This document shows, piece after piece, positions 5,503-20,000 of a DNA stretch of 20,000 nt. The number at the start of each line of letters is the position of its first letter. Positions within the stretch are counted from its first letter, which is position 1. The notes below the pieces were generated by a model. It was not told where the DNA came from and did no database searches. It saw only the letters and a list, made by a program, of their open reading frames with translations. The position numbers and the translations under genes were made by a program. Origin of the DNA: an uncultured virus (IMG/VR IMGVR_UViG_3300042356_001581) (taxonomy: Duplodnaviria; Heunggongvirae; Uroviricota; Caudoviricetes); the IMG/VR virus record IMGVR_UViG_3300042356_001581. The stretch is one strand, 5' to 3'.

Positions 5503-5526
5503 AGTTAATTGTGTATTAAAGTTACT

Positions 5527-5548
5527 GTTAGCGGATAGTTAGCGGATA
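5527..5548 (+). repeat. Tandem GTTAGCGGATA x2 at the array start; candidate attI-like entry site
   Basis: Exact 11 bp direct repeat; the first cassette core GTTA (5538) has no preceding hairpin. Confidence 0.5.
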
Positions 5549-5592
5549 TGGCAGTAGAACCGAAGAACTACCGCCAAATCCAAGTAACAAGA

Positions 5593-5811
5593 TTACTTTT
5601 TAAAAGAAAACTTATCTCCTAAAATCTCTAATCTTTGACCTAAAACTTGCAAATACTCATTCATCAATCTTGATTGTTTGTAAAGCAAATCTTTGTTTTG
5701 TCGGTCTAAATCAACAAAAGCCTGTGTACGCATAAAATCATTTAAGGAATTTGTTTTAGTTGCCAATTCTTGCGCTTCAATAAGAAGTCTGTCGTAAAAT
5801 GAATCTCCCAT
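5593..5811 (-). CDS. Cassette 1: small helical phage protein (crAss001_48-like)
   Basis: RL..E..EL......L..F.....F..L.....LL..Q...M..Y..VL..R pattern recalled from that family. Confidence 0.6.
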   Translation of the reverse strand: MGDSFYDRLLIEAQELATKTNSLNDFMRTQAFVDLDRQNKDLLYKQSRLMNEYLQVLGQRLEILGDKFSFKK

Positions 5812-5869
5812 AATATTTGTGTTTGGGTTTTATAACTCCGCCCAGAAGTTTAGTGGAAGCCACATCCGC

Positions 5870-5994
5870 TAACAGCTTGTATAGTTAATGCGGTCTATGG
5901 CTTAATTTATTGTTCAGTTTGCACTTGGATTGTTCGGTCTTGAATGGAATTATTCGGCTTATTTTTCCGCACTAACCATATAAGCGAACCGTTA
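5870..5994 (+). repeat. Hairpin site A1
   Basis: TAAC-agcttgtatagttaatgcgg ... ccgcactaaccatataagc-gaacc-GTTA. Confidence 0.85.
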
Positions 5995-6008
5995 TATACA
6001 ATAAAAAT

Positions 6009-6386
6009 TTACCATCGCTCTTTTTTGAATATAATTTGTTTATCTAATTTTATTTGATGTATGGTGTGAAATGTCCGTTCTTTTACATATTTTTTAAATG
6101 TGTTGAAAACTTCTTCCGATACCATTTTACTTTTCACATAATAAATATATGGACTTTTACCACTCATATCATCTCTCCACATATTAAAACCATATCTTTC
6201 CCCATTAGGAAAATTATGTCTATGTTCGTGAATTAAATTATATTTTTTTGATTTAGCTTTATATGGTTTAAATTTACTAATAGCATCTACCATTAATTTA
6301 ATATTCTCAATATCATTTTCATCCACATCTGATTTAAGATATGTGAAATCACCATCATTTGTATCAACTTTTATATTTATTATCAT
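6009..6386 (-). CDS. Cassette 2: hypothetical protein
   Basis: 125 aa ORF bounded by IR gttatatacaataaaaat / atttttactgtatataac. Confidence 0.7.
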   Translation of the reverse strand: MIINIKVDTNDGDFTYLKSDVDENDIENIKLMVDAISKFKPYKAKSKKYNLIHEHRHNFPNGERYGFNMWRDDMSGKSPYIYYVKSKMVSEEVFNTFKKYVKERTFHTIHQIKLDKQIIFKKERW

Positions 6387-6428
6387 AATATTATTTTAAA
6401 ATTATCCAACGCACATTTTTACTGTATA

Positions 6429-6476
6429 TAACAAAGTGTAAAAAACATTAAAACGATTTTTTACACTCAACCGTTA
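6429..6476 (+). repeat. Hairpin site A2 (shortest, 48 bp)
   Basis: TAAC-aaagtgtaaaaaa ... ttttttacact-caacc-GTTA. Confidence 0.8.
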
Positions 6477-6485
6477 TGTGCAAGG

Positions 6486-7292
6486 CTACGAAACTGCATC
6501 TAAACGACTATTCGTTATTTCAATAGCCATTGGATTAATGTCGCAACCTATAAAATTTCGGTTCAGTTCTTTACAAACTACTGCTGTTGTTCCCGAACCT
6601 AAATAGTAATCTGCAACTGTATCACCTTCATTTGAACTTGCTTTTATTATTCGTTCTATTAATGCTTTTGGCTTTTGGGTTGGGTATTTTGAATACTCTT
6701 TTGAATTGCCTTTAAGTGTGTGTATTACCATCCAATCTTCCATAATTTTACCTCCGTTTTTAGATAAAGGGCTGTCGGCTTTACCCATCATTGAGTTACT
6801 TCCATACTTACCTCTTTCTTTACTACTTTCGGAATAATCTGTTAATACGCTTTGCCAATTAAATGTATAATCTTTAGTTTTTGCGTAAGAAAATATATTA
6901 TCGTGTTTTGCATTAAATCTCCTTTTGTTGTTGTTTGGCATAGTGTAGCACCATATAATTTCATTTACAAAATTATCATACCCAAAAATATCATCCATTA
7001 TCAACCTAATCCAATGGGATATTCTATAATCCATTTGTAAATAGATAGTACCTGTGCTTTTTAATACTCGGTGCATTTCTTTTAATCGTGGTAAATAATG
7101 TGCTTCAATTTCACTTCTAATCGGTTTTAAGTCTTGGTAATCTCCAAAGTTTCTGCCAGTTCCATAAAGAATATCACAATAAATCAAATCTACACTTTCA
7201 TCAGGTTGCGACAAAAGGAGTTCAAGGTTATCAACCGCCCTGCACATAACACGGGTTTGGCAAAATGGCTGTTCAGTAATTCTATCAATCAT
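6486..7292 (-). CDS. Cassette 3: N6-adenine/N4-cytosine DNA methyltransferase (beta class)
   Basis: Motif IV-like CDILYG at the N-terminus, YPTQKP, motif I DYYLGSGTT, FIGCDIN. Confidence 0.88.
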   Translation of the reverse strand: MIDRITEQPFCQTRVMCRAVDNLELLLSQPDESVDLIYCDILYGTGRNFGDYQDLKPIRSEIEAHYLPRLKEMHRVLKSTGTIYLQMDYRISHWIRLIMDDIFGYDNFVNEIIWCYTMPNNNKRRFNAKHDNIFSYAKTKDYTFNWQSVLTDYSESSKERGKYGSNSMMGKADSPLSKNGGKIMEDWMVIHTLKGNSKEYSKYPTQKPKALIERIIKASSNEGDTVADYYLGSGTTAVVCKELNRNFIGCDINPMAIEITNSRLDAVS

Positions 7293-7366
7293 TCGTTTTT
7301 AATTTTAAAGTTTAGTAATTCTATTTAGCTTCGGGTTCAGCCACTTCACCAAGCCCGATAACGTTA
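7247..7366 (+). repeat. Hairpin site A3 (contains start codon of 6486..7292)
   Basis: TAAC-acgggtttggcaaaatggctg ... cagccacttcaccaagcccg-ataac-GTTA. Confidence 0.88.
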
Positions 7367-7597
7367 GGTGTAATGCCACTCCGCCACTTCACTTCTATCA
7401 AAATGTGTTTGACGTGAAAAATGTTTAGTCCACCAAGCAAAGGCACGAAATGAACCTCCCCATAAATGCTCATAATATCCTCGATACCATTTTTCACCTA
7501 CTTTAAATTTTAACTCGTAATATGATGAAGGCACTACACCTAACAGCACATTGCCAAAAGTGGGGGTTATCGTTTTTAAATCAGCTTTTACACTCAT
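7364..7597 (-). CDS. Cassette 4: hypothetical protein
   Basis: 77 aa; stop codon is the TTA of the GTTA core; start lies in hairpin A4. Confidence 0.65.
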   Translation of the reverse strand: MSVKADLKTITPTFGNVLLGVVPSSYYELKFKVGEKWYRGYYEHLWGGSFRAFAWWTKHFSRQTHFDRSEVAEWHYT

Positions 7598-7666
7598 ATC
7601 AAATTTTGTATTTCAATTAAAGTTTAGTGGTATAAAGCCCCACCTTCGGCAATCTGCAAAACGTTA
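7541..7666 (+). repeat. Hairpin site A4
   Basis: TAAC-agcacattgccaaaagtgggg ... ccccaccttcggcaatctgc-aaaac-GTTA. Confidence 0.88.
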
Positions 7667-7681
7667 GCAGTAATATTGTGG

Positions 7682-7921
7682 CTACTTACCAATAGGTCTA
7701 TTGCAAGTTGCACAGATATAACTACCATTCATTAAATAACATTGAGATTGTTGACAGCCACAATACATACTGCTAACATCGGCTATACGCAAGTTTTTTG
7801 CTTCCGTTAGTCGGTTAATAACATTGTTTGCCTCTATCAACATTTCAATCAATTTGTCTTTTTCTACCATTTGATACATCTCTACTTTTTCAGAGTGTGT
7901 CATTTCAATTACTTGCATCAT
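7682..7921 (-). CDS. Cassette 5: small protein with Cys-rich C-terminus
   Basis: 79 aa; CGC...C...CATC at the C-terminus; first ~49 aa encoded within hairpin A5. Confidence 0.6.
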   Translation of the reverse strand: MMQVIEMTHSEKVEMYQMVEKDKLIEMLIEANNVINRLTEAKNLRIADVSSMYCGCQQSQCYLMNGSYICATCNRPIGK

Positions 7922-7981
7922 ATATTTTAATTTTAGTGTTTCAAATTCGCAAAAAACCTGACGTATAGCCGAGAACCGTTA
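7774..7981 (+). repeat. Hairpin site A5 (longest, 208 bp)
   Basis: TAAC-atcggctatacgcaagttttttgc ... gcaaaaaacctgacgtatagccga-gaacc-GTTA. Confidence 0.85.
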
Positions 7982-7984
7982 TGG

Positions 7985-8287
7985 TTAATATTTGTATTCT
8001 GCTATTTTAGAAGCTAATCCCCAACTTTGCAACTTACCACCGTAGTTAGATATAAATCTAAATACATCGCCCATATAAGTAGGTTCAGATGGTGTATAAA
8101 TATAAGTTCCTGCAATAGTTTCTAATCGTAATTTCCAAGTATGATTATCTTTAAAAACTTTCGCATCGAAACCCATACATAGTTTTAATTCTTCTGCAAT
8201 TAAATTACATTTTTCTTCATTAAACATACTAACCATAACACTCGTTTGGCTCAATGCCTTATTTTCGTTTATATCGTTTTTCATCAC
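7985..8287 (-). CDS. Cassette 6: hypothetical protein
   Basis: 100 aa; start (GTG 8287 or ATG 8284) in hairpin A6. Confidence 0.65.
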   Translation of the reverse strand: MMKNDINENKALSQTSVMVSMFNEEKCNLIAEELKLCMGFDAKVFKDNHTWKLRLETIAGTYIYTPSEPTYMGDVFRFISNYGGKLQSWGLASKIAEYKY

Positions 8288-8352
8288 GTTTTATTTTTAA
8301 TTAGATAATTTAGTTTTCATAACTCGGCACTAAGCCAAGCGAGGGAACGTTA
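8236..8352 (+). repeat. Hairpin site A6
   Basis: TAAC-actcgtttggctcaatgcc ... ggcactaagccaagcgag-ggaac-GTTA. Confidence 0.88.
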
Positions 8353-8571
8353 GCAACTATGCTCTAATTTGTATATTTTCTCTATTTCATCTACTCTTAA
8401 TGGGTCACAATATCTACCTCTTTGATAATTAACAACTCTAAATATGTATTTTTCGGTTAATTTATGTCTTTCTTCCCAATTGACTTTATTCCACCAAGCA
8501 ATAGCACAATTGCTAACAGCATTTTGTGGCAATTGCGGGGTTTGGATTTCTTTTTCCATTTTAGTTTTCAA
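8350..8571 (-). CDS. Cassette 7: hypothetical protein (likely ATG at 8559)
   Basis: Stop codon is the TTA of the core; start in hairpin A7. Confidence 0.6.
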   Translation of the reverse strand: MKTKMEKEIQTPQLPQNAVSNCAIAWWNKVNWEERHKLTEKYIFRVVNYQRGRYCDPLRVDEIEKIYKLEHSC

Positions 8572-8643
8572 TTTAAAGATTAGTATTTTTTTGTATGGTA
8601 TGTGTTAATTCGTCCGCAACTAACCACAAGATGCAAAACGTTA
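8514..8643 (+). repeat. Hairpin site A7
   Basis: TAAC-agcattttgtggcaattgcgg ... ccgcaactaaccacaagatgc-aaaac-GTTA. Confidence 0.85.
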
Positions 8644-8647
8644 TGCC

Positions 8648-8947
8648 TTATTTTGAAGAACGAGACGAACCAAAAGTTAAGATACCTGCTCCAAGAACAA
8701 AACCGAAGTTATACCAACCTCCATTGTTATTATAAGCATAAAATGCAATATCATCAGAAAATAAACTACCAATAAATGAAATTGGCGCAACTATTCCGTG
8801 CCATAAACCGCCCCAAAATCCATAAGGAGAACTTGTAATACAATCTTGTACGTGTGGGCTTACATCGGCACAAGAAGTTAAAGAAAGAAAAACAAGGCAT
8901 AACAGCCATTTGGCAAGATTGCGGGTTAATTTTGTGTTTTGAAACAT
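8648..8947 (-). CDS. Cassette 8: putative lipoprotein/membrane protein
   Basis: Lipobox-like LTSC after a hydrophobic stretch; GFWGGLWHG and GWYNFGF hydrophobic segments. Confidence 0.75.
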   Translation of the reverse strand: MFQNTKLTRNLAKWLLCLVFLSLTSCADVSPHVQDCITSSPYGFWGGLWHGIVAPISFIGSLFSDDIAFYAYNNNGGWYNFGFVLGAGILTFGSSRSSK

Positions 8948-9029
8948 AGTTTTTAAATTTAAAGATTAGTAATATTTTGCGTGTTTGGGTCTTGAATCGT
9001 CCGCAACCTCGCCAAGTGGCAGGACGTTA
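8900..9029 (+). repeat. Hairpin site A8
   Basis: TAAC-agccatttggcaagattgcgg ... ccgcaacctcgccaagtggc-aggac-GTTA. Confidence 0.88.
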
Positions 9030-9038
9030 GGCGCAATG

Positions 9039-9215
9039 CTAATCCAAGACACCTGCCAACCAAATTGGACAAAATATAAGCCAGTACAAAAATCGTTCTT
9101 GTAAACTGACTGCTAAGTTGTCTTTACCTATTGTTTTGCAATCATTCCTCCAAATCAAATAGAATGGAATAAAAAGAACTATTTGCAGTAATACACATAT
9201 CAATATTTTGTTCAT
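9039..9215 (-). CDS. Cassette 9: 58 aa two-TM membrane protein (not in the ORF track)
   Basis: Read manually: MNKILICVLLQIVLFIPFYLIWRNDCKTIGKDNLAVSLQERFLYWLIFCPIWLAGVLD*; fills cassette 9026-9249. Confidence 0.7.
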   Translation of the reverse strand: MNKILICVLLQIVLFIPFYLIWRNDCKTIGKDNLAVSLQERFLYWLIFCPIWLAGVLD

Positions 9216-9245
9216 TTTGTTTCAATTTGTGAGAAGCACTGCACC

Positions 9246-9333
9246 TAACAGCACATAGGCAATAGTTGCCAGAAACCTCTCGGTTAATAATTTAATTTAT
9301 CGTAGGCAACCATCGCCTATCTGCAAAACGTTA
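9246..9333 (+). repeat. Hairpin site A9
   Basis: TAAC-agcacataggcaatagttgcc ... ggcaaccatcgcctatctgc-aaaac-GTTA. Confidence 0.88.
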
Positions 9334-9552
9334 TGGTTTATGCTTCGATTGGTTTTCATAAGAACTTATATTTTTGCTCATATTGAAATAAATAATTGTA
9401 AAAACAATTGCTCCAAATGTTACGATTCCCCAATCTCCAATTTTATCAGATGCTTTATATGTAAATAATGCCGTTCCAAACCAACACATAATCGAACACC
9501 ATTTCATTTGTCTTTTAAAGTTTTTCGCTTCTTTAATAAATTCTTCACTCAT
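9331..9552 (-). CDS. Cassette 10: small two-TM membrane protein
   Basis: 73 aa, two hydrophobic helices; stop codon is the TTA of the core. Confidence 0.7.
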   Translation of the reverse strand: MSEEFIKEAKNFKRQMKWCSIMCWFGTALFTYKASDKIGDWGIVTFGAIVFTIIYFNMSKNISSYENQSKHKP

Positions 9553-9583
9553 TACGTTTTCGTTTTATGAACCGCACTAACCA

Positions 9584-9710
9584 TAACAAGTGTTTGGCAA
9601 AAAAGCGGGTTCGGTTATTAATTTAAAATTTGTTTTGTGTCTTTATAATTCAGGCTTAATCGAAGTTTTATGCTTTCTTAATCGCTTCTTCGCCAAGCAC
9701 TCGAACGTTA
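9584..9710 (+). repeat. Hairpin site A10
   Basis: TAAC-aagtgtttggcaaaaaagcg ... cgcttcttcgccaagcact-cgaac-GTTA. Confidence 0.85.
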
Positions 9711-10502
9711 GTGGCAATACTCCGAAGCCCTCCGAACAGCGACATCGTAATATTGTTTTTCCTTTTCTATTCCAATTGATTTGCGATTTAATTTGATACA
9801 AGCCAAGTTTGTTGTACCGCTTCCTGTTGTGTTATCCAATACCATATCACCTTCATTAGTATATGATTTCACAAGCATTTCAAGTAAAGCAAGTGGTTTC
9901 TGTGTTGGGTGTATCGTTCCATCAAGTTTTGTTTTTTGTTTATCTGAAGCAAAAACTTGTACACTTCTTGGGTATCTGTCAGTTTCTCCGCCACCGCTTA
10001 CATCTTGCTTTACTTTTCCATACACTTCTGTTTTATTGCAAACTTCGGCTTTCTTGGTATAGGTATTTACAGGCTTATGTCCTTCTGTTTTTTGTGGATT
10101 AAACTTTGGTGTTTTATTGTAAAATACTAAAATGTTTTCGTGTGCTTTCATAGGCATTTTCTTTGCATTAAAATATCCTGTTGCTTGTGTTTTCTCCCAA
10201 ATCCATTCGTATTTTAACCATTCCAAATTTGAGCAACCAAGCACTTTATCAAATGGTGTTTGTGCAAATAAAATTACCACCCCATTATAATTTAGTATTC
10301 GTTTATATTGTTCCCAAAGTTTATTCAAATCCAAAACAGAATCCCATTTGCAGTTAGTAGTACCATAAGGCAAATCGCAAATAATAGCATCAATTGATTT
10401 ATCCTCAATAAAAGGAAAAACATCGAAACAATCTGCGTTCACAAAAGTACTGCCACTAACACGGGTTTGGCAAAATGGCTGTTCAGTAATTCTATCAATC
10501 AT
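9708..10502 (-). CDS. Cassette 11: N6-adenine/N4-cytosine DNA methyltransferase (beta class)
   Basis: ICDLPYG, YEWIWEK, HPTQKP, LDNTTGSGTT, IGIE. Confidence 0.92.
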   Translation of the reverse strand: MIDRITEQPFCQTRVSGSTFVNADCFDVFPFIEDKSIDAIICDLPYGTTNCKWDSVLDLNKLWEQYKRILNYNGVVILFAQTPFDKVLGCSNLEWLKYEWIWEKTQATGYFNAKKMPMKAHENILVFYNKTPKFNPQKTEGHKPVNTYTKKAEVCNKTEVYGKVKQDVSGGGETDRYPRSVQVFASDKQKTKLDGTIHPTQKPLALLEMLVKSYTNEGDMVLDNTTGSGTTNLACIKLNRKSIGIEKEKQYYDVAVRRASEYCH

Positions 10503-10527
10503 TAGTTTTTAATTTAAAGATTAGTTT
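10457..10527 (+). repeat. Truncated hairpin site A11 (left half, copy of A3)
   Basis: First 47 nt identical to 7247-7293; right arm and GTTA core absent. Confidence 0.75.
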
Positions 10528-10854
10528 TTACTTAGTCGTTATCCGTAACAACAAAATACACCACCCGACTTTATCCGACTTCATAAAATCTTGTATTTCA
10601 GAAATTAGTTGCTCTTTAGTTTCAGTTACAAATTCTTGCCTTCCATCAGGTTGTGGATTTCCATTATTCATTTTGTAGGCAAACCAAATTTTAGCATAAT
10701 ATTCACTACTTTCTTCATCAGGATTTTCCACTATACAAGATTTTATTCTACTATCAAGCGAAGTTATCTCATCAGAAGTAACTGCACCTAACAGTGGTTT
10801 TGACTTATTGCCACATTCGGCTTCATTTAATGATTGTTTTGTACTTGTATTCAT
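10528..10854 (-). CDS. Cassette 12: hypothetical protein
   Basis: 108 aa; start in hairpin A12. Confidence 0.65.
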   Translation of the reverse strand: MNTSTKQSLNEAECGNKSKPLLGAVTSDEITSLDSRIKSCIVENPDEESSEYYAKIWFAYKMNNGNPQPDGRQEFVTETKEQLISEIQDFMKSDKVGWCILLLRITTK

Positions 10855-10917
10855 TGGTTTTTAATTTAAAGATTAGGTCTTATTTTATTGGCAACAAGAC
10901 AAAGCCACCAAACGTTA
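10789..10917 (+). repeat. Hairpin site A12
   Basis: TAAC-agtggttttgacttattgcca ... tggcaacaagacaaagccac-caaac-GTTA. Confidence 0.85.
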
Positions 10918-10926
10918 TGAGCAAGT

Positions 10927-11229
10927 TTACTGACCGTCTTCGTAAAGACTCATTTCAAAACCGTGAGAGTAAAAATCTCCAAGTCCACCCGCATCAATAA
11001 CTATTTTGAAATTATAATCTTCGTGAGAAACTACAATTTGAGTTCCTTCATCATCTTCTATGTTTTCAGTTGGTATTCCAACACATTCTATAAAGTGTTG
11101 CATACTTTGATTATTATCCATACTCATATTATCATTTTCATTAATAATACGATATGATGTTTCTCCTTTTGCAAATTCATCAAACATTTGTGTTATCGAA
11201 TTTGGTATCTCATAAATTTCTGTTTTCAT
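10927..11229 (-). CDS. Cassette 13: acidic hypothetical protein
   Basis: 100 aa ORF; IR gttatgagcaagtt / aacctgctcataac. Confidence 0.7.
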   Translation of the reverse strand: MKTEIYEIPNSITQMFDEFAKGETSYRIINENDNMSMDNNQSMQHFIECVGIPTENIEDDEGTQIVVSHEDYNFKIVIDAGGLGDFYSHGFEMSLYEDGQ

Positions 11230-11263
11230 AATAATATTTTGTTTAAATTACACAACCTGCTCA

Positions 11264-11391
11264 TAACAGCAATTTGGCAATATGTCGGTTTTGGTCTTTA
11301 ATTTAATAGTTGTTTTGTACTTGTAGAAATTCGGTATTTCCGAATGTATTAGCTTCCTTAAACCGACACATCGTCAAGTTGCATAACGTTA
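11264..11391 (+). repeat. Hairpin site A13
   Basis: TAAC-agcaatttggcaatatgtcggttt ... aaaccgacacatcgtcaagttgc-ataac-GTTA. Confidence 0.88.
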
Positions 11392-11400
11392 GTAGCAAGA

Positions 11401-11625
11401 CTACGTTTTATCTTTCAAAGACAAAACCTTGAATGTTGGGTAGCCTTTAGGTATTCCAAAACCAAAACCAATATAAACAGAATGATGTCCCCAACATAAA
11501 CCTATTCCGTAAACACTTACGATTTCTAATATAGTCAATACTCCAAATAAATATGGTGTAATTGCAAAATCTTCTTTATTTAATTTGGTATTTTGATAAC
11601 CTCCTATAATTTTTGGTTTTCTCAT
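11401..11625 (-). CDS. Cassette 14: small hydrophobic hypothetical protein
   Basis: 74 aa ORF filling the cassette. Confidence 0.65.
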   Translation of the reverse strand: MRKPKIIGGYQNTKLNKEDFAITPYLFGVLTILEIVSVYGIGLCWGHHSVYIGFGFGIPKGYPTFKVLSLKDKT

Positions 11626-11662
11626 TTCAATAATATTTAGTTTTAATAATCCGTCCAGCTAC

Positions 11663-11735
11663 TAACACACGTTTGTAGCTAGTGGAGGAATCTACACTTC
11701 CGAATACGCCACCATCTACAAGCGTTGGAAGGTTA
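11663..11735 (+). repeat. Hairpin site A14
   Basis: TAAC-acacgtttgtagctagtgg ... ccaccatctacaagcgt-tggaag-GTTA. Confidence 0.8.
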
Positions 11736-11742
11736 GCAGTAA

Positions 11743-11937
11743 TTATTCCCAATCTTCCTTATCAGCTTGAGTTTCTGCCATTACAGCTATTATTTGCCTT
11801 TCACGTTCTGTAAATTCAAACCAATTAGTTTGCCAATCGTAAGGAACGTAATTTCTCCAATCGTGAACTTTTCCTTTTTCTTCAAACTTTGGATTTTCAA
11901 TATCTATTAATTCTGTAAAATTTTCAAATATGTTCAT
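11743..11937 (-). CDS. Cassette 15: hypothetical protein
   Basis: ATG at 11937 (MNIFENF...) preferred to TTG at 11967; HDWRNYVP motif. Confidence 0.65.
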   Translation of the reverse strand: MNIFENFTELIDIENPKFEEKGKVHDWRNYVPYDWQTNWFEFTERERQIIAVMAETQADKEDWE

Positions 11938-11961
11938 CTCGTTTAGTATTATAACTACTGC

Positions 11962-12087
11962 TAACAACGGTTATACAATAGTTGGGTTAATTGTTTAATT
12001 TAAAGTCTGTTTTGTGTCGAGATAATTTGTGTTAATCGGAAAATTACGGCTATCTTATCCCAACCATCGTATAGCCGTCAAACGTTA
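11962..12087 (+). repeat. Hairpin site A15
   Basis: TAAC-aacggttatacaatagttggg ... cccaaccatcgtatagccgt-caaac-GTTA. Confidence 0.88.
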
Positions 12088-12096
12088 GCAGTAATA

Positions 12097-12993
12097 CTAT
12101 ATTCCATCTCCGAATGAAGTCACTACATTAAAATCTTTTTCTTTTCTTTTTTCTTCCACCCTCTTTAAAGAAATATTAAAATAATCCATATTATTCTCAA
12201 TTCCGATAAAGTTCCTATTTGTGTTTATACAGGCAATTCCTGTTGTCATTGAGCCACCAAACATATCTAAAACAGTTTGATATTCTTTTGTGAAAGTTTT
12301 TATTAAGTTTTCCATTAGTTTTAACGGCTTTTGGGTTTCGTGTAACTTGTCTGAAATATGCGAACTTTCTTCAATTAAATTTGTTTTGTAAATTTCAGAA
12401 GAAAAAGTACCTGTACCATACTTCAAATAACAATCTGTAATAGTTCCACCAATCTTATATGGCTTAAACATATACACAATTGGTTCTACTATTGGTGCTA
12501 AATTACCCAATCTTCTATTATCGCTATAATCTGAATTTCTTTTACCTATTACTTGACCTATCCTTTGTGCTTTAAATGGTGCTTTTTTCTTATTCCAACT
12601 AATTACATCTTTTAATATTAGACCGCTATTTTCTCCTGCAACCGTAAACCTATGTTGATATTGCCTTCCTGTAAAACATAATATTGGAGACGCAGGTTTC
12701 ATAATTCGATAACACTCTTTTAAAAAACTTTCGCAAAATATTTGAAATTCAATACTTATTTGCTTGTCTTTATCACTCCATCCATTTTTAGGCTTACCTC
12801 TACTTTTAAATATTTTACTATTTTGTTGCGCAGGGGAACTCCCTAATAATGCAGTATTGGTATTAGAATGTTTAACATCCCAATCACTAAATGAAATCCC
12901 ATAAGGAATATCTGAAATTATAGCATCAATACTTTCATCTGCTATCAATTTCATTTGTTCTATTGCATCTCCGTATCTTAAATCTATTGTCAT
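12097..12993 (-). CDS. Cassette 16: N6-adenine/N4-cytosine DNA methyltransferase (beta class)
   Basis: ISDIPYG, HETQKP, LDMFGGSMTT, FIGIE. Confidence 0.9.
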   Translation of the reverse strand: MTIDLRYGDAIEQMKLIADESIDAIISDIPYGISFSDWDVKHSNTNTALLGSSPAQQNSKIFKSRGKPKNGWSDKDKQISIEFQIFCESFLKECYRIMKPASPILCFTGRQYQHRFTVAGENSGLILKDVISWNKKKAPFKAQRIGQVIGKRNSDYSDNRRLGNLAPIVEPIVYMFKPYKIGGTITDCYLKYGTGTFSSEIYKTNLIEESSHISDKLHETQKPLKLMENLIKTFTKEYQTVLDMFGGSMTTGIACINTNRNFIGIENNMDYFNISLKRVEEKRKEKDFNVVTSFGDGI

Positions 12994-13087
12994 AATTTTA
13001 TTTTAATATTTTGCCATCGCTTTAAAAAAGAAAAGAAAAAGGTTCAGTTCTCCGAATGAGCATTTGTGGTTAATTACCGTACTACTG

Positions 13088-13148
13088 TAACACCACCTAT
13101 ACGCAAGTTTTGTGAAAAACAAAACCTGACGTATAGCTGTAAACGTTA
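13088..13148 (+). repeat. Hairpin site A16
   Basis: TAAC-accacctatacgcaagttttgt ... acaaaacctgacgtatag-ctgtaaac-GTTA; arms related to A5. Confidence 0.8.
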
Positions 13149-13152
13149 GCCG

Positions 13153-13605
13153 TCATTCTAAAACGACCGCATCCAACGACTTTAATCTGTTTAAAATATA
13201 AAGGTTTGGTCTTATGTATTTATTTTCTCTTCTGAATTGTTCTTTGTCGATTTCTGACAAAAATTTATCATACAAAAAAGTTGCAACCGCACCGCTTCGA
13301 GAAATTCCAGCAGAACAATGAACCATAAATACTGACTTTTCTTTATGTTTTTCGATAAAATCAACTATTTCTTTTAGTTCTTTATCATTTGGTTTTTCAT
13401 ATTTTAACTCACCATTTTCATATAAATCTTCTTCAATATCCCACATTTTAACTTGCAGAAAATTGTCTATTGATTTATCAAATTTTTGCTCGTTATTATC
13501 AATATCGAGTATTGAAATAAAACAAGCATAGTCGTAATATTTAAACTCTTTATCAGTAAAGTTTTTATCGAAAACTAATTTTGGTATTGCTTTTATTTGC
13601 TTCAT
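13153..13605 (-). CDS. Cassette 17: protein-tyrosine/dual-specificity phosphatase-like protein
   Basis: Catalytic HCxxGxxRS motif (VHCSAGISRS) and a C-terminal PN motif. Confidence 0.85.
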   Translation of the reverse strand: MKQIKAIPKLVFDKNFTDKEFKYYDYACFISILDIDNNEQKFDKSIDNFLQVKMWDIEEDLYENGELKYEKPNDKELKEIVDFIEKHKEKSVFMVHCSAGISRSGAVATFLYDKFLSEIDKEQFRRENKYIRPNLYILNRLKSLDAVVLE

Positions 13606-13638
13606 TTTAAATTATTTAGTGGAAAAAGAACGAACGGC

Positions 13639-13756
13639 TAAAAAAGTGTATAAGCAATAACCGTTAGGCGTTTTTAACTATTGCGGTTGTTAATATTTAT
13701 TTTATATTTCTAATCAAGTTTTGTGTTCGGCAACTTCGCCAAGCCTACAAAAGTTA
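13639..13756 (+). repeat. Degenerate hairpin site A17
   Basis: Core reads TAAA instead of TAAC; right end acttcgccaag-cctacaaaa-GTTA does not pair with the left arm. Confidence 0.55.
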
Positions 13757-13972
13757 TAAAGCATTTAAAGCTGTAACTATTTTATTCGCCATTTCATCAC
13801 AATATTCTTCGCCGTTATCATAAACTAAATGGCAAACCACTTTATTCATATCGTTGTCTATAATTGCGAATAAAGCAAAGTCAGCTACAATTACTTTATT
13901 GATAGAAAAACGGCTTATAACAGCGGTTTTTCCGTATTGTGGAATTTGGGTATTTTTTAAAAGCTTAGTCAT
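13754..13972 (-). CDS. Cassette 18: hypothetical protein
   Basis: 72 aa; stop codon is the TTA of the core; start lies in the half-site beginning at TAAC 13918. Confidence 0.65.
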   Translation of the reverse strand: MTKLLKNTQIPQYGKTAVISRFSINKVIVADFALFAIIDNDMNKVVCHLVYDNGEEYCDEMANKIVTALNAL

Positions 13973-18854: not shown

Positions 18855-18889
18855 TTGGTTCAATTTATTGAATGGTGCTTAGTAAATAG

Positions 18890-19090
18890 TTATGCAACAG
18901 TTTGCGAAAGAGTAAACCGAGTAAATTTTGTTTCTAAATCTTCTTCAGTTGTGTATTTAAAATTTATAGAATCTAGTAATTTTTTAAAGTTTTCGGCATC
19001 AGAAGACAATAAGCGAATAGTCTTTTTTTCTTGGAATAGCTCAAGCGTTTTACCCCAGCTTGGATTTGGTATTATAGTTGTGATTTTCAT
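18890..19090 (-). CDS. Cassette 19: hypothetical protein
   Basis: 66 aa; stop codon is the TTA of the core. Confidence 0.6.
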   Translation of the reverse strand: MKITTIIPNPSWGKTLELFQEKKTIRLLSSDAENFKKLLDSINFKYTTEEDLETKFTRFTLSQTVA

Positions 19091-19124
19091 TTCGTTTACG
19101 TTTACGTTTAAAAAACCGATTGCA

Positions 19125-19251
19125 TAACAATATATTGTAGCAATTAAGGCTTTGGTTATTAATTTATTTATGTTCTTGTACTTGGTTTTATTGGGTCTTT
19201 AATCGAAGCATAAGGCTTTCTTATCCTTAACTGCTACAATAATGAACGTTA
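19125..19251 (+). repeat. Hairpin site A19
   Basis: TAAC-aatatattgtagcaattaagg ... ccttaactgctacaata-atgaac-GTTA. Confidence 0.85.
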
Positions 19252-19263
19252 GAGGTAATTTGT

Positions 19264-19485
19264 TTACGCATCTAACCACCTTTCAATTTCATTTGGTTTA
19301 TATGTTTTACCTGCAAGTGCTACCCAAAATTGGTTATGTTTATTAAATTTTAATGGTTGTCTAACCCCATCAGCATAACATATAAACCAAAGATTTTCGG
19401 TAGGTGTTCTATCGTCACCATTAACCCACAAACTACCGCTAACAGCAGGTTTATTCAATGCGGATTTTTCGTTATTATTGTTCAT
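19264..19485 (-). CDS. Cassette 20: hypothetical protein
   Basis: 73 aa; start in hairpin A20. Confidence 0.65.
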   Translation of the reverse strand: MNNNNEKSALNKPAVSGSLWVNGDDRTPTENLWFICYADGVRQPLKFNKHNQFWVALAGKTYKPNEIERWLDA

Positions 19486-19564
19486 TTCTGCTTCTATTTA
19501 ATTTTTTTATTAGTTTGAAATATTGTGCTTCTAAGTCCACACTAAATAAACCTGCGAACCGTTA
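19440..19564 (+). repeat. Hairpin site A20
   Basis: TAAC-agcaggtttattcaatgcgga ... tccacactaaataaacctgc-gaacc-GTTA. Confidence 0.88.
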
Positions 19565-19573
19565 GCAGTAATA

Positions 19574-20000
19574 CTACATTCCATCTACGAATGAAGTTAC
19601 TACGTTAAATTCTTTTTCTTTTCTTTTTTCTTCCACCCTCTTTTTTGAAGTATTGAAATAGTTTTCATCTAATTCAATACCAATGAAATTACGTTTTGTA
19701 TTCATACAGGCAATTCCAGTTGAGCAACTACCCATAGTCAAATCAACAACTAAATTACCCTCGTTGCTGAAAGTCTTTATCAAATCTTCTAAAAGCAATA
19801 TCGGTTTTTGTGTTGGGTGTAATCCATCATAATCTTTTTTGTATTCCAAAACATTGCTTTTAAACTTACCACCTTCCCATAAGTTGAATGTTGCTCTATA
19901 TTTTAAATCCATTTTTTCTATTTCATCAAATGGTTTCAAAAAATAACCAGTAATGCTTAATTTTTCATAATGTTTTTTTATTGGAAAAGCCCATTGCTTT
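19574..20000 (-). CDS. Cassette 21: DNA methyltransferase, C-terminal part (5' end outside the window)
   Basis: Frame open to the window edge; HPTQKP, VDLTMGSCST, FIGIELD. Confidence 0.88.
   Translation of the reverse strand, partial: KQWAFPIKKHYEKLSITGYFLKPFDEIEKMDLKYRATFNLWEGGKFKSNVLEYKKDYDGLHPTQKPILLLEDLIKTFSNEGNLVVDLTMGSCSTGIACMNTKRNFIGIELDENYFNTSKKRVEEKRKEKEFNVVTSFVDGM

Follow-up and report, generated by a model that had tools for sequence, protein, structure and literature searches.

Private inverted repeats in a phage cassette array are probably the split outer arm of an attC-like recombination hairpin

Integron sites are the standard example of DNA whose shape, rather than its sequence, is read by a recombinase. 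XerCD integrates the folded single-stranded genome of the CTX phage. To our knowledge, the length of duplex that is needed outside the 7-bp core of an integron site is usually not discussed. Here we describe an array of 18 cassette-like units at positions 5538–13921 of the window, which is a 20,000-nt stretch of DNA from an uncultured virus (IMG/VR record IMGVR_UViG_3300042356_001581). The two ends of a unit carry inverted repeats that are private to that unit, and we confirm that these own-end repeats are real and strong. We think it quite probable that each repeat is one half of an arm that the crossover splits, namely the outer arm, bound by the recombinase, of an attC-like recombination hairpin.

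Clusters of attC sites without an integrase are known from lytic phages, where the cassettes include DNA methyltransferases (Qi et al. 2023, PMC9892861). The same study reported two attC sites in Polaribacter phage P12002L; the array in our window has 18 units. We found that P12002L carries the same family of hairpins, and the same kind of private arms, as the window. In gut Bacteroidales, the rAID-1 system has a gene for a XerD-family tyrosine recombinase at the 5' end of co-oriented gene arrays, and its repetitive intergenic sequences were called reminiscent of integrons (Ross et al. 2019, bioRxiv 10.1101/471110). By DNA similarity, the nearest named relatives of the window are Flavobacterium phages of the genus Muminvirus, with the match limited to single cassettes. 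Muminvirus phages have the same arrays. The available portions of the paper on the isolation of Muminvirus (Nilsson et al. 2020, PMC7077304) do not mention a hairpin, a cassette, or an integrase. A literature search gave no account of this phage system, or of own-end pairing of such length, in the portions of text available, and Fig. S4 of Ross et al. may bear on the anatomy of the repeats. This Bacteroidota-type recombination hairpin is common in Bacteroidota and their phages and is hardly described.

We delimited the 18 units from their GTTA and TAAC cores and the hairpins in between (Table 1). On the + strand, each unit has GTTA at its start and TAAC at its end, and an imperfect hairpin of 48–208 nt runs from the TAAC to the next GTTA. 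The initial annotation of this DNA had claimed that the bases after each GTTA are the reverse complement of the bases before the TAAC at the far end of the same gene, and all six of its example pairs were found in place. We scored the pairing at positions 5–15 after GTTA, with position 11 excluded and no gaps allowed (maximum of 10). On average, units match their own far end at 8.1 of 10 positions, compared to means of 3.7 over all cross pairings and 3.8 over the 17 pairs of in-array neighbors. In 15 of the 18 units, no other end pairs better than the own end. The claim was to be given up if own ends paired no better than random pairings of ends, but none of 100,000 permutations reached the observed sum. 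In units 5, 16, and 17, the own-end match is shifted by one indel, and unit 12 is degenerate.

The complementarity had been put at 14–20 bp. Instead, we find an arm of exactly 15 bp, as complementarity ends sharply after position 15. Within the arm, position 11 is a fixed non-pair: it is A in 18/18 units on the GTTA side and G in 16/18 in the reverse complement of the TAAC side. This position is thus mismatched (A.C) on the + strand, and on the minus strand it forms a T.G wobble.

To examine the distribution of this hairpin family, we built a search pattern from four hairpins of the window. The family is present at no fewer than 133 loci in the genomes of Bacteroidota (Flavobacterium, Chryseobacterium, Chitinophagaceae, Saprospiraceae, and others) and at no fewer than 124 viral loci. 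In Flavobacterium chromosomes, near-identical hairpins of 126 nt lie directly after co-oriented genes; the repeats of Vibrio integrons are likewise near-identical.

From these loci we assembled an independent set of cassettes, defined as the intervals between consecutive hairpins from a duplex-energy scan that ignores the arms. After removing redundancy, there were 253 bacterial and 385 viral intervals. Own ends match at 9 or more of 11 positions in 156 of the bacterial and 215 of the viral intervals. At the same threshold, in-array partners match in just 10 bacterial and 7 viral intervals, and random pairs match about 1% of the time (157/12,602 bacterial and 162/19,202 viral). Sites that the scan missed within an interval could only make the own-end counts lower. 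Together, the permutations and the random-pair controls exclude chance or base composition as the source of the own-end pairing.

The positional pattern is the same as in the window. Own-end identity at positions 4–9 and 12–15 is 69–79% in bacteria and 58–85% in viruses, falls to 55–59% at position 10 and 4–6% at position 11, and is at background from position 16 onward. For in-array or random partners, identity is 25–84% and is high only at position 4, which is conserved. In the 168 bacterial and 245 viral intervals that match at 8 or more of 11 positions, all four Watson-Crick pair types are used at positions 5–7, 9, 13, and 14, which implies that it is the pairing that is conserved rather than the sequence. 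Position 11 is Watson-Crick paired in none of them (0%). It is G.T on the bottom strand in 85–86% of cassettes and on the top strand in 0%, and the base at the cassette start is A in 168/168 bacterial and 245/245 viral cassettes.

P12002L (L004; 29237–30065 and 38000–39122) has a variant geometry of the 15-bp arm. It has a two-base non-pair at positions 10–11, with AA against TT, and some of its arms extend beyond 20 bp, with a small bubble inside them.

In the window, hairpins are present between TAAC and GTTA at 15 of the 17 junctions, and the remaining two are degenerate. The duplex scan identified 16 sites in the window, and a covariance model with 24 base pairs identified 15; the model has 243 and 271 matches in related loci. 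(A first, rigid pair-count scan found 153 sites, as compared to 271 model matches in the same 55 loci, so we used the duplex-energy scan instead.) The hairpins have the features of attC sites: they are imperfect, are bounded by AAC and GTT cores, and contain unpaired bases. They differ from classical integron sites in that the extra unpaired bases (4 nt) lie directly after the core, on the 5' arm of the strand that folds well. In the inner stems, too, A.C mismatches on the + strand correspond to G.T pairs on the minus strand. The hairpins have the conserved stretches TTGGCAA and CGCCAAG in common, and adjacent hairpins are often dissimilar. With clustered attC-type sites and no recombinase within 20 kb, the array has what defines a cluster of attC sites lacking an integrase (CALIN).

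We folded the junctions in silico, with the hairpin of each cassette joined to its own start (as in a circle), to the next start (as in the array), or to other starts. On the + strand, the predicted energies are -17.8 kcal/mol for the circle, -13.7 for the array, and -13.5 for other starts. The corresponding values on the minus strand are -22.1, -16.2, and -15.8 kcal/mol. The circle has the lower energy of the two at 17/17 junctions on the + strand and at 16/17 on the minus strand. This circularization had been suggested as a check, and its outcome favors the claim: circle junctions are better than array junctions by 4–6 kcal/mol, and array junctions are no better than shuffled ones. The private repeats do behave as the two halves of one stem, which is restored by joining the end of a cassette to its own start. 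Of the two strands, the minus strand is more stable at 16/17 junctions, and its folds are more stable by 4.3 kcal/mol. It folds better because its non-Watson-Crick positions are G.T wobbles, which are A.C on the + strand.

The initial annotation also proposed that excision as a circle is needed for the full stem to form, and this part was not supported. We folded whole cassettes with both flanking hairpins as one single strand and counted the private stem as present if at least 10 of its 15 pairs formed. On the minus strand, the minimum-energy structure contains the private stem, with the cassette body looped out, in 11 of 15 cassettes; for the + strand, the number is 7 of 15. Hence the full stem is also predicted for single strands in the array context. 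According to these models, the private stem requires either circularity or a fully single-stranded cassette.

Comparisons between phages locate the borders of the mobile unit. Phages mymlan6-1 and mumin6-1, whose flanking sequences are 99.8–99.9% identical, differ by one replaced cassette (a methyltransferase unit) and one inserted cassette. At the replaced unit, identity is lost at ...AACGTTAG on the low side and regained at GTTAGC on the high side. The inserted unit is placed between G and TTA. Also, five whole cassettes from the window recur, at 89–95% identity, in contigs that do not otherwise match. Each spans one GTTA to the following one and takes in the hairpin at its higher coordinates. 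These are unit 4 (7360–7674, 93% identical to the otherwise unrelated contig L183), unit 8 (8640–9041, 94% identical to L184), unit 10 (9326–9710, 89% identical to L151), unit 13 (exactly 10914–11391, 94% identical to L144), and unit 16 (12081–13150, a 91–95% match in mymlan6-1, where both arms are intact). Overall, the cassette breakpoints in seven comparisons are all at the GTTA core.

From the phage comparisons and the five whole-unit matches, the mobile unit, read on the + strand, consists of TTA-arm, gene, arm-TAAC, hairpin, and G. This order is that of a classical integron cassette, and the + strand is the top strand; the border is at the G|TT of the 3' core, and the hairpin is carried at the 3' end of the cassette. 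On the basis of arm lengths, we had guessed that the hairpin downstream of each gene, in the sense of the gene, belongs to that gene, and the phage comparisons show the opposite.

These observations fit the split outer arm of an attC-like hairpin. If strands are exchanged at or beside G|TTA, 12 of the 15 bases on one side of the arm would stay with the cassette start, and the bases they pair with would sit at the opposite end of the cassette. The full 15 bp would form again when the cassette is a circle or when the whole cassette is single-stranded. We infer that a compact tyrosine recombinase, similar to XerA and IntI, acts on the folded minus strand, as IntI acts on attC, and that it needs the full-length duplex arm. 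For the phage in the window, this enzyme would be supplied by the host or by another phage.

Candidates for such an enzyme are found next to related arrays, including one in the phage contig L138. A homolog of the array-adjacent recombinase from Flavobacterium difficile has a site 97–1897 nt away in 17 of 55 genome loci (14 distinct regions; these are the loci of at least 8 kb among the matches listed) and in 12 of 68 viral loci (11 distinct). The array-adjacent recombinases have Phage_integrase and SAM-like domains. Their best model is NF040815 (XerA-like), where they score 171–222 bits (cut-off 220). With the integron-integrase model TIGR02249, the match comes in two stretches, without model positions 179–239, at 124–209 bits (cut-off 265). 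The part that they skip is the one specific to IntI, and no enzyme with this domain was found in the window. From the linkage to arrays, a tyrosine recombinase of this kind probably acts on these sites. The array-linked recombinase of Flavobacterium celericrescens (L258, 556–2334) is 592 amino acids long, with ~300 extra N-terminal residues that have no match in Pfam. The phage versions have 267–293 amino acids.

Several observations weigh against a split recombination arm. First, no tyrosine recombinase was found in the 20-kb window, either among its 39 open reading frames (ORFs; searched with Pfam) or by tblastn. The isolates mymlan6-1 and P12002L do not encode one either. Second, the crossover is located only to the six bases CGTTAG. 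Third, when 17 pairs of homologous cassettes were compared, 14 changes in the arms affected one side only, and just 2 were compensatory. With so few compensatory changes, selection to maintain the pairing lacks direct support. Fourth, P12002L_attC1, which is the only site of this family to be tested experimentally, gave no verified recombinants with IntI1 and was the sole failure among six sites (Qi et al. 2023, PMC9892861, in the parts that concern this site). That site was built in array form, with 7-bp cores (same source).

A more ambitious version of the split-arm reading can be offered only tentatively, and we have more doubt than confidence in it. The 15-bp arm, with a T at position 11 that is never paired, might be the recognition code of an undescribed integron-like system, in which a Xer-type enzyme reads folded single strands without the IntI domain. 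The cassette might loop itself out between its two hairpins and so mark its own borders, which would make excision autonomous, with no need for mismatched hybrid sites. The phage units are inverted, and their stems and hairpins would also fold in the transcript, with the start codon in the loop.

The cassette genes are not co-oriented with the attC top strand in the window or in viruses: they are antisense to the site in 9 of 9 scorable cases in the window and in 210 of 215 viral cassettes (4 are sense and 1 is unscorable). In contrast, most bacterial arrays of the same family are sense (130 of 156 cassettes, with 15 antisense and 11 unscorable). The orientation in phages would suit a role for the stems mainly in RNA. 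The ends of each cistron would pair, position 11 being G.U, and so act in processing, stability, or translational control, and the pattern in the DNA would be secondary. Phage cassette genes do lie on the strand that folds better (by the 4.3 kcal/mol given above), and some start codons are located in the hairpin loops. However, the asymmetry of the wobble tracks the orientation of the site and not of the gene. Bacterial cassettes have the same pattern at position 11, and the transcripts of the 130 sense cassettes would hold A.C mismatches. Also, a role in RNA leaves the replacement and insertion of cassettes at GTTA unexplained. Overall, we consider this explanation improbable.

Homologous shuffling has been proposed for the promoter/stem-loop cassettes of T4-type phages. 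Here, homologous recombination between conserved intergenic repeats could shuffle the units, with the private repeats being incidental. TTGGCAA and CGCCAAG could act as short homologies, and this would fit the lack of a recombinase in the window. But homologous exchange would neither make nor keep 11 private complementary bases per cassette, and it would scatter the breakpoints, instead of placing them at the GTTA core in all seven comparisons. Furthermore, the adjacent hairpins are often unlike each other. We view homologous shuffling as very unlikely. Finally, we give almost no credence to the idea that each unit is a small transposon-like element whose terminal inverted repeats are read by a transposase: inverted repeats ending in fixed GTTA/TAAC do flank each gene, but their sequence differs from unit to unit while pairing is kept with all four pair types, which points to recognition of structure, and target duplications are absent, the borders fall within a larger hairpin, and the enzyme that is linked in relatives is a tyrosine recombinase.

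Table 1. Units of the array and the second run in the window. Spans are on the + strand and genes are on the minus strand; the last column is the ungapped own-end match, out of 10.
Unit	Span	Private arms	Hairpin	Gene	Gene product and remarks	Own-end match
1	5538–5994	5538–5552, 5859–5873	5870–5994	5593–5811	crAss001_48-related (Pfam PF21825)	10
2	5991–6476	5991–6005, 6418–6432	6429–6476 (short)	6009–6386		10
3	6473–7366	6473–6487, 7236–7250	7247–7366	6486–7292	N6/N4 DNA methyltransferase (PF01555); longest ORF begins in hairpin loop	9
4	7363–7666	7363–7377, 7530–7544	7541–7666	7364–7597	start in loop, stop in GTTA core	10
5	7663–7981	7663–7681, 7759–7777 (~19 bp, extra base at position 11)	7774–7981 (145-nt loop)	7682–7921	mostly within loop	7
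6	7978–8352	7978–7992, 8225–8239	8236–8352	7985–8287		9
7	8349–8643	8349–8363, 8503–8517	8514–8643	8350–8571		9
8	8640–9029	8640–8654, 8889–8903	8900–9029	8648–8947	phrog_30702 (PHROG); start in loop	10
9	9026–9333	9026–9040, 9235–9249	9246–9333	9039–9215		9
10	9330–9710	9330–9344, 9573–9587	9584–9710	9331–9552		8
11	9707–10541	9707–9721, 10446–10460	10457–10541 (truncated, second arm missing)	9708–10502	methyltransferase (PF01555)	10
12	10538–10917	decayed	10789–10917	10528–10854		4
13	10914–11391	10914–10928, 11253–11267	11264–11391	10927–11229		9
14	11388–11735	11388–11402, 11652–11666	11663–11735	11401–11625		8
15	11732–12087	11732–11746, 11951–11965	11962–12087	11743–11967	phrog_9546, RecX-like (PHROG)	10
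16	12084–13148	12084–12098, 13077–13091 (far arm minus one base)	13088–13148 (short)	12097–12993	methyltransferase	0
17	13145–13756	13145–13159, ~13627–13641 (one indel; core TAAA)	13638–13756 (degenerate)	13153–13605	dual-specificity phosphatase-like	7
18	13753–13921	13753–13767, 13907–13921	first arm only, after 13921	13754–13972		7
Second run	18889–20000	at 19248 and 19440	19125–19251, 19440–19564	19574–19999	methyltransferase fragment (PF01555)

Some of the units differ from the general plan or have been seen elsewhere. Unit 3 has matches in other contigs that stop exactly at 7366. In unit 5, the cassette body is only 115 nt, and most of its 79-codon ORF is inside the 145-nt loop of the hairpin. 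The remnant of the hairpin of unit 11 has a folding energy of just -1.9 kcal/mol. In the first arm and the loop, it is nearly identical to the hairpin at 7247–7366, each of these two hairpins heads a methyltransferase gene, and the first 15 codons of the two genes are identical. Within 10457–10549, the hairpin of unit 11 is followed by GTTATCCGTAAC, with two cores eight bases apart. The private stem is missing from the folds of unit 12. Phage mymlan6-1 has a cassette with the same arm sequences as unit 14. The gene in unit 17 scores 33.2 bits for Pfam's DSPc, which just misses the cut-off of 33.5, and 24.0 bits for Y_phosphatase, which is above the cut-off. At the start of the array (5521–5552), part of the first core and arm occurs twice in tandem, as GTTAGCGGATA and then GTTAGCGGATATGGC, with GTTACT in front. 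This duplication could be a recombination scar or an attI-like end.

The longest ORF begins at an ATG in the hairpin loop for the hairpins at 7247–7366, 7541–7666, 7774–7981, 8236–8352, 8514–8643, 8900–9029, 10457–10541, and 10789–10917. These ORFs continue across the hairpin arm and the GTTA/TAAC core to reach the body of the cassette. The loops have a common motif, close to TAATCTTTAAATTAAAAAC, just 5' of the ATG. Across the viral contigs, 80 of the 210 antisense cassettes have a start inside the hairpin.

The window as a whole is DNA of a Flavobacterium-type phage, with nearly all of its ORFs on the minus strand. They encode a DnaQ-type exonuclease, a DUF932 protein, an AAA ATPase, and three and a half N6/N4 DNA methyltransferases (Pfam PF01555); many small proteins have matches in PHROG only. 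This stretch is present as contigs in 24 sequencing runs from lake water. The second run of cassettes lies 5 kb away from the array, beyond the gene for a 593-amino-acid AAA ATPase and other non-cassette genes. The C-terminal residues of its methyltransferase fragment are nearly the same as those of the methyltransferase at 12097–12993. An exact-match search with the end of the window gave no match in viral or metagenome contigs, and no Rfam family matched the window at gathering scores. We tried the 593-amino-acid ATPase as an anchor for synteny, and no relatives were confirmed in viral contigs.

A defined 15-bp outer arm with a fixed wobble, in which most of one side is carried by the neighboring cassette, is a handle that can be mutated. 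It bears on how a Xer-like enzyme without the IntI domain would choose its strand and site, and on whether cassettes insert more easily than they excise, as the initial annotation thought possible. It also bears on how lytic phages trade methyltransferases and other counter-defense genes. The family occurs in hundreds of Bacteroidota and phage loci (at least 133 plus at least 124), and tools that are derived from the classical models of attC and IntI under-call its arrays.

How does this array compare to the known systems? The sites are like attC and IntI of integrons in being imperfect hairpins with AAC...GTT cores, in arrays of one-gene units, with one strand folding better than the other. 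The border is at or next to G|TT in both, and in both the bases after the core pair with the far end of the same cassette. The two systems differ in that the recombinase linked in relatives of the window is without the IntI-specific insertion, and in that the phage cassette genes are antisense to the site. They also differ in the extent of own-end pairing. As a classical comparison, we used an IntIA array from a Vibrio anguillarum prophage whose record Qi et al. name; it has 16 sites and 15 cassettes. There, own-end identity is 100% up to position 8, 80% at position 9, and 53% at positions 10–11, and is at background beyond. So the pairing extends for 8–11 bp in the Vibrio IntIA array, as compared to 15 bp with a fixed wobble here. 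The initial annotation had put it at 7 bp for integron cassettes, which is slightly short for this Vibrio array, and its contention that the arm in the window is longer clearly stands. The parts of Qi et al. 2023 (PMC9892861) on P12002L do not mention extended own-end pairing.

The rAID-1 arrays can be likened to this one by description only, and the available portions of Ross et al. 2019 (bioRxiv 10.1101/471110) do not describe the anatomy of hairpins, the crossover points, or arrays in phages. A parallel for the putative enzyme comes from another phage. In the integration of CTX by XerCD, as here if our reading is correct, a Xer-type tyrosine recombinase acts on a single-strand hairpin and one strand is exchanged. 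The CTX site, however, mimics dif and is read by its sequence, whereas the arm of the cassettes described here is private to each of them and only its pairing is conserved.

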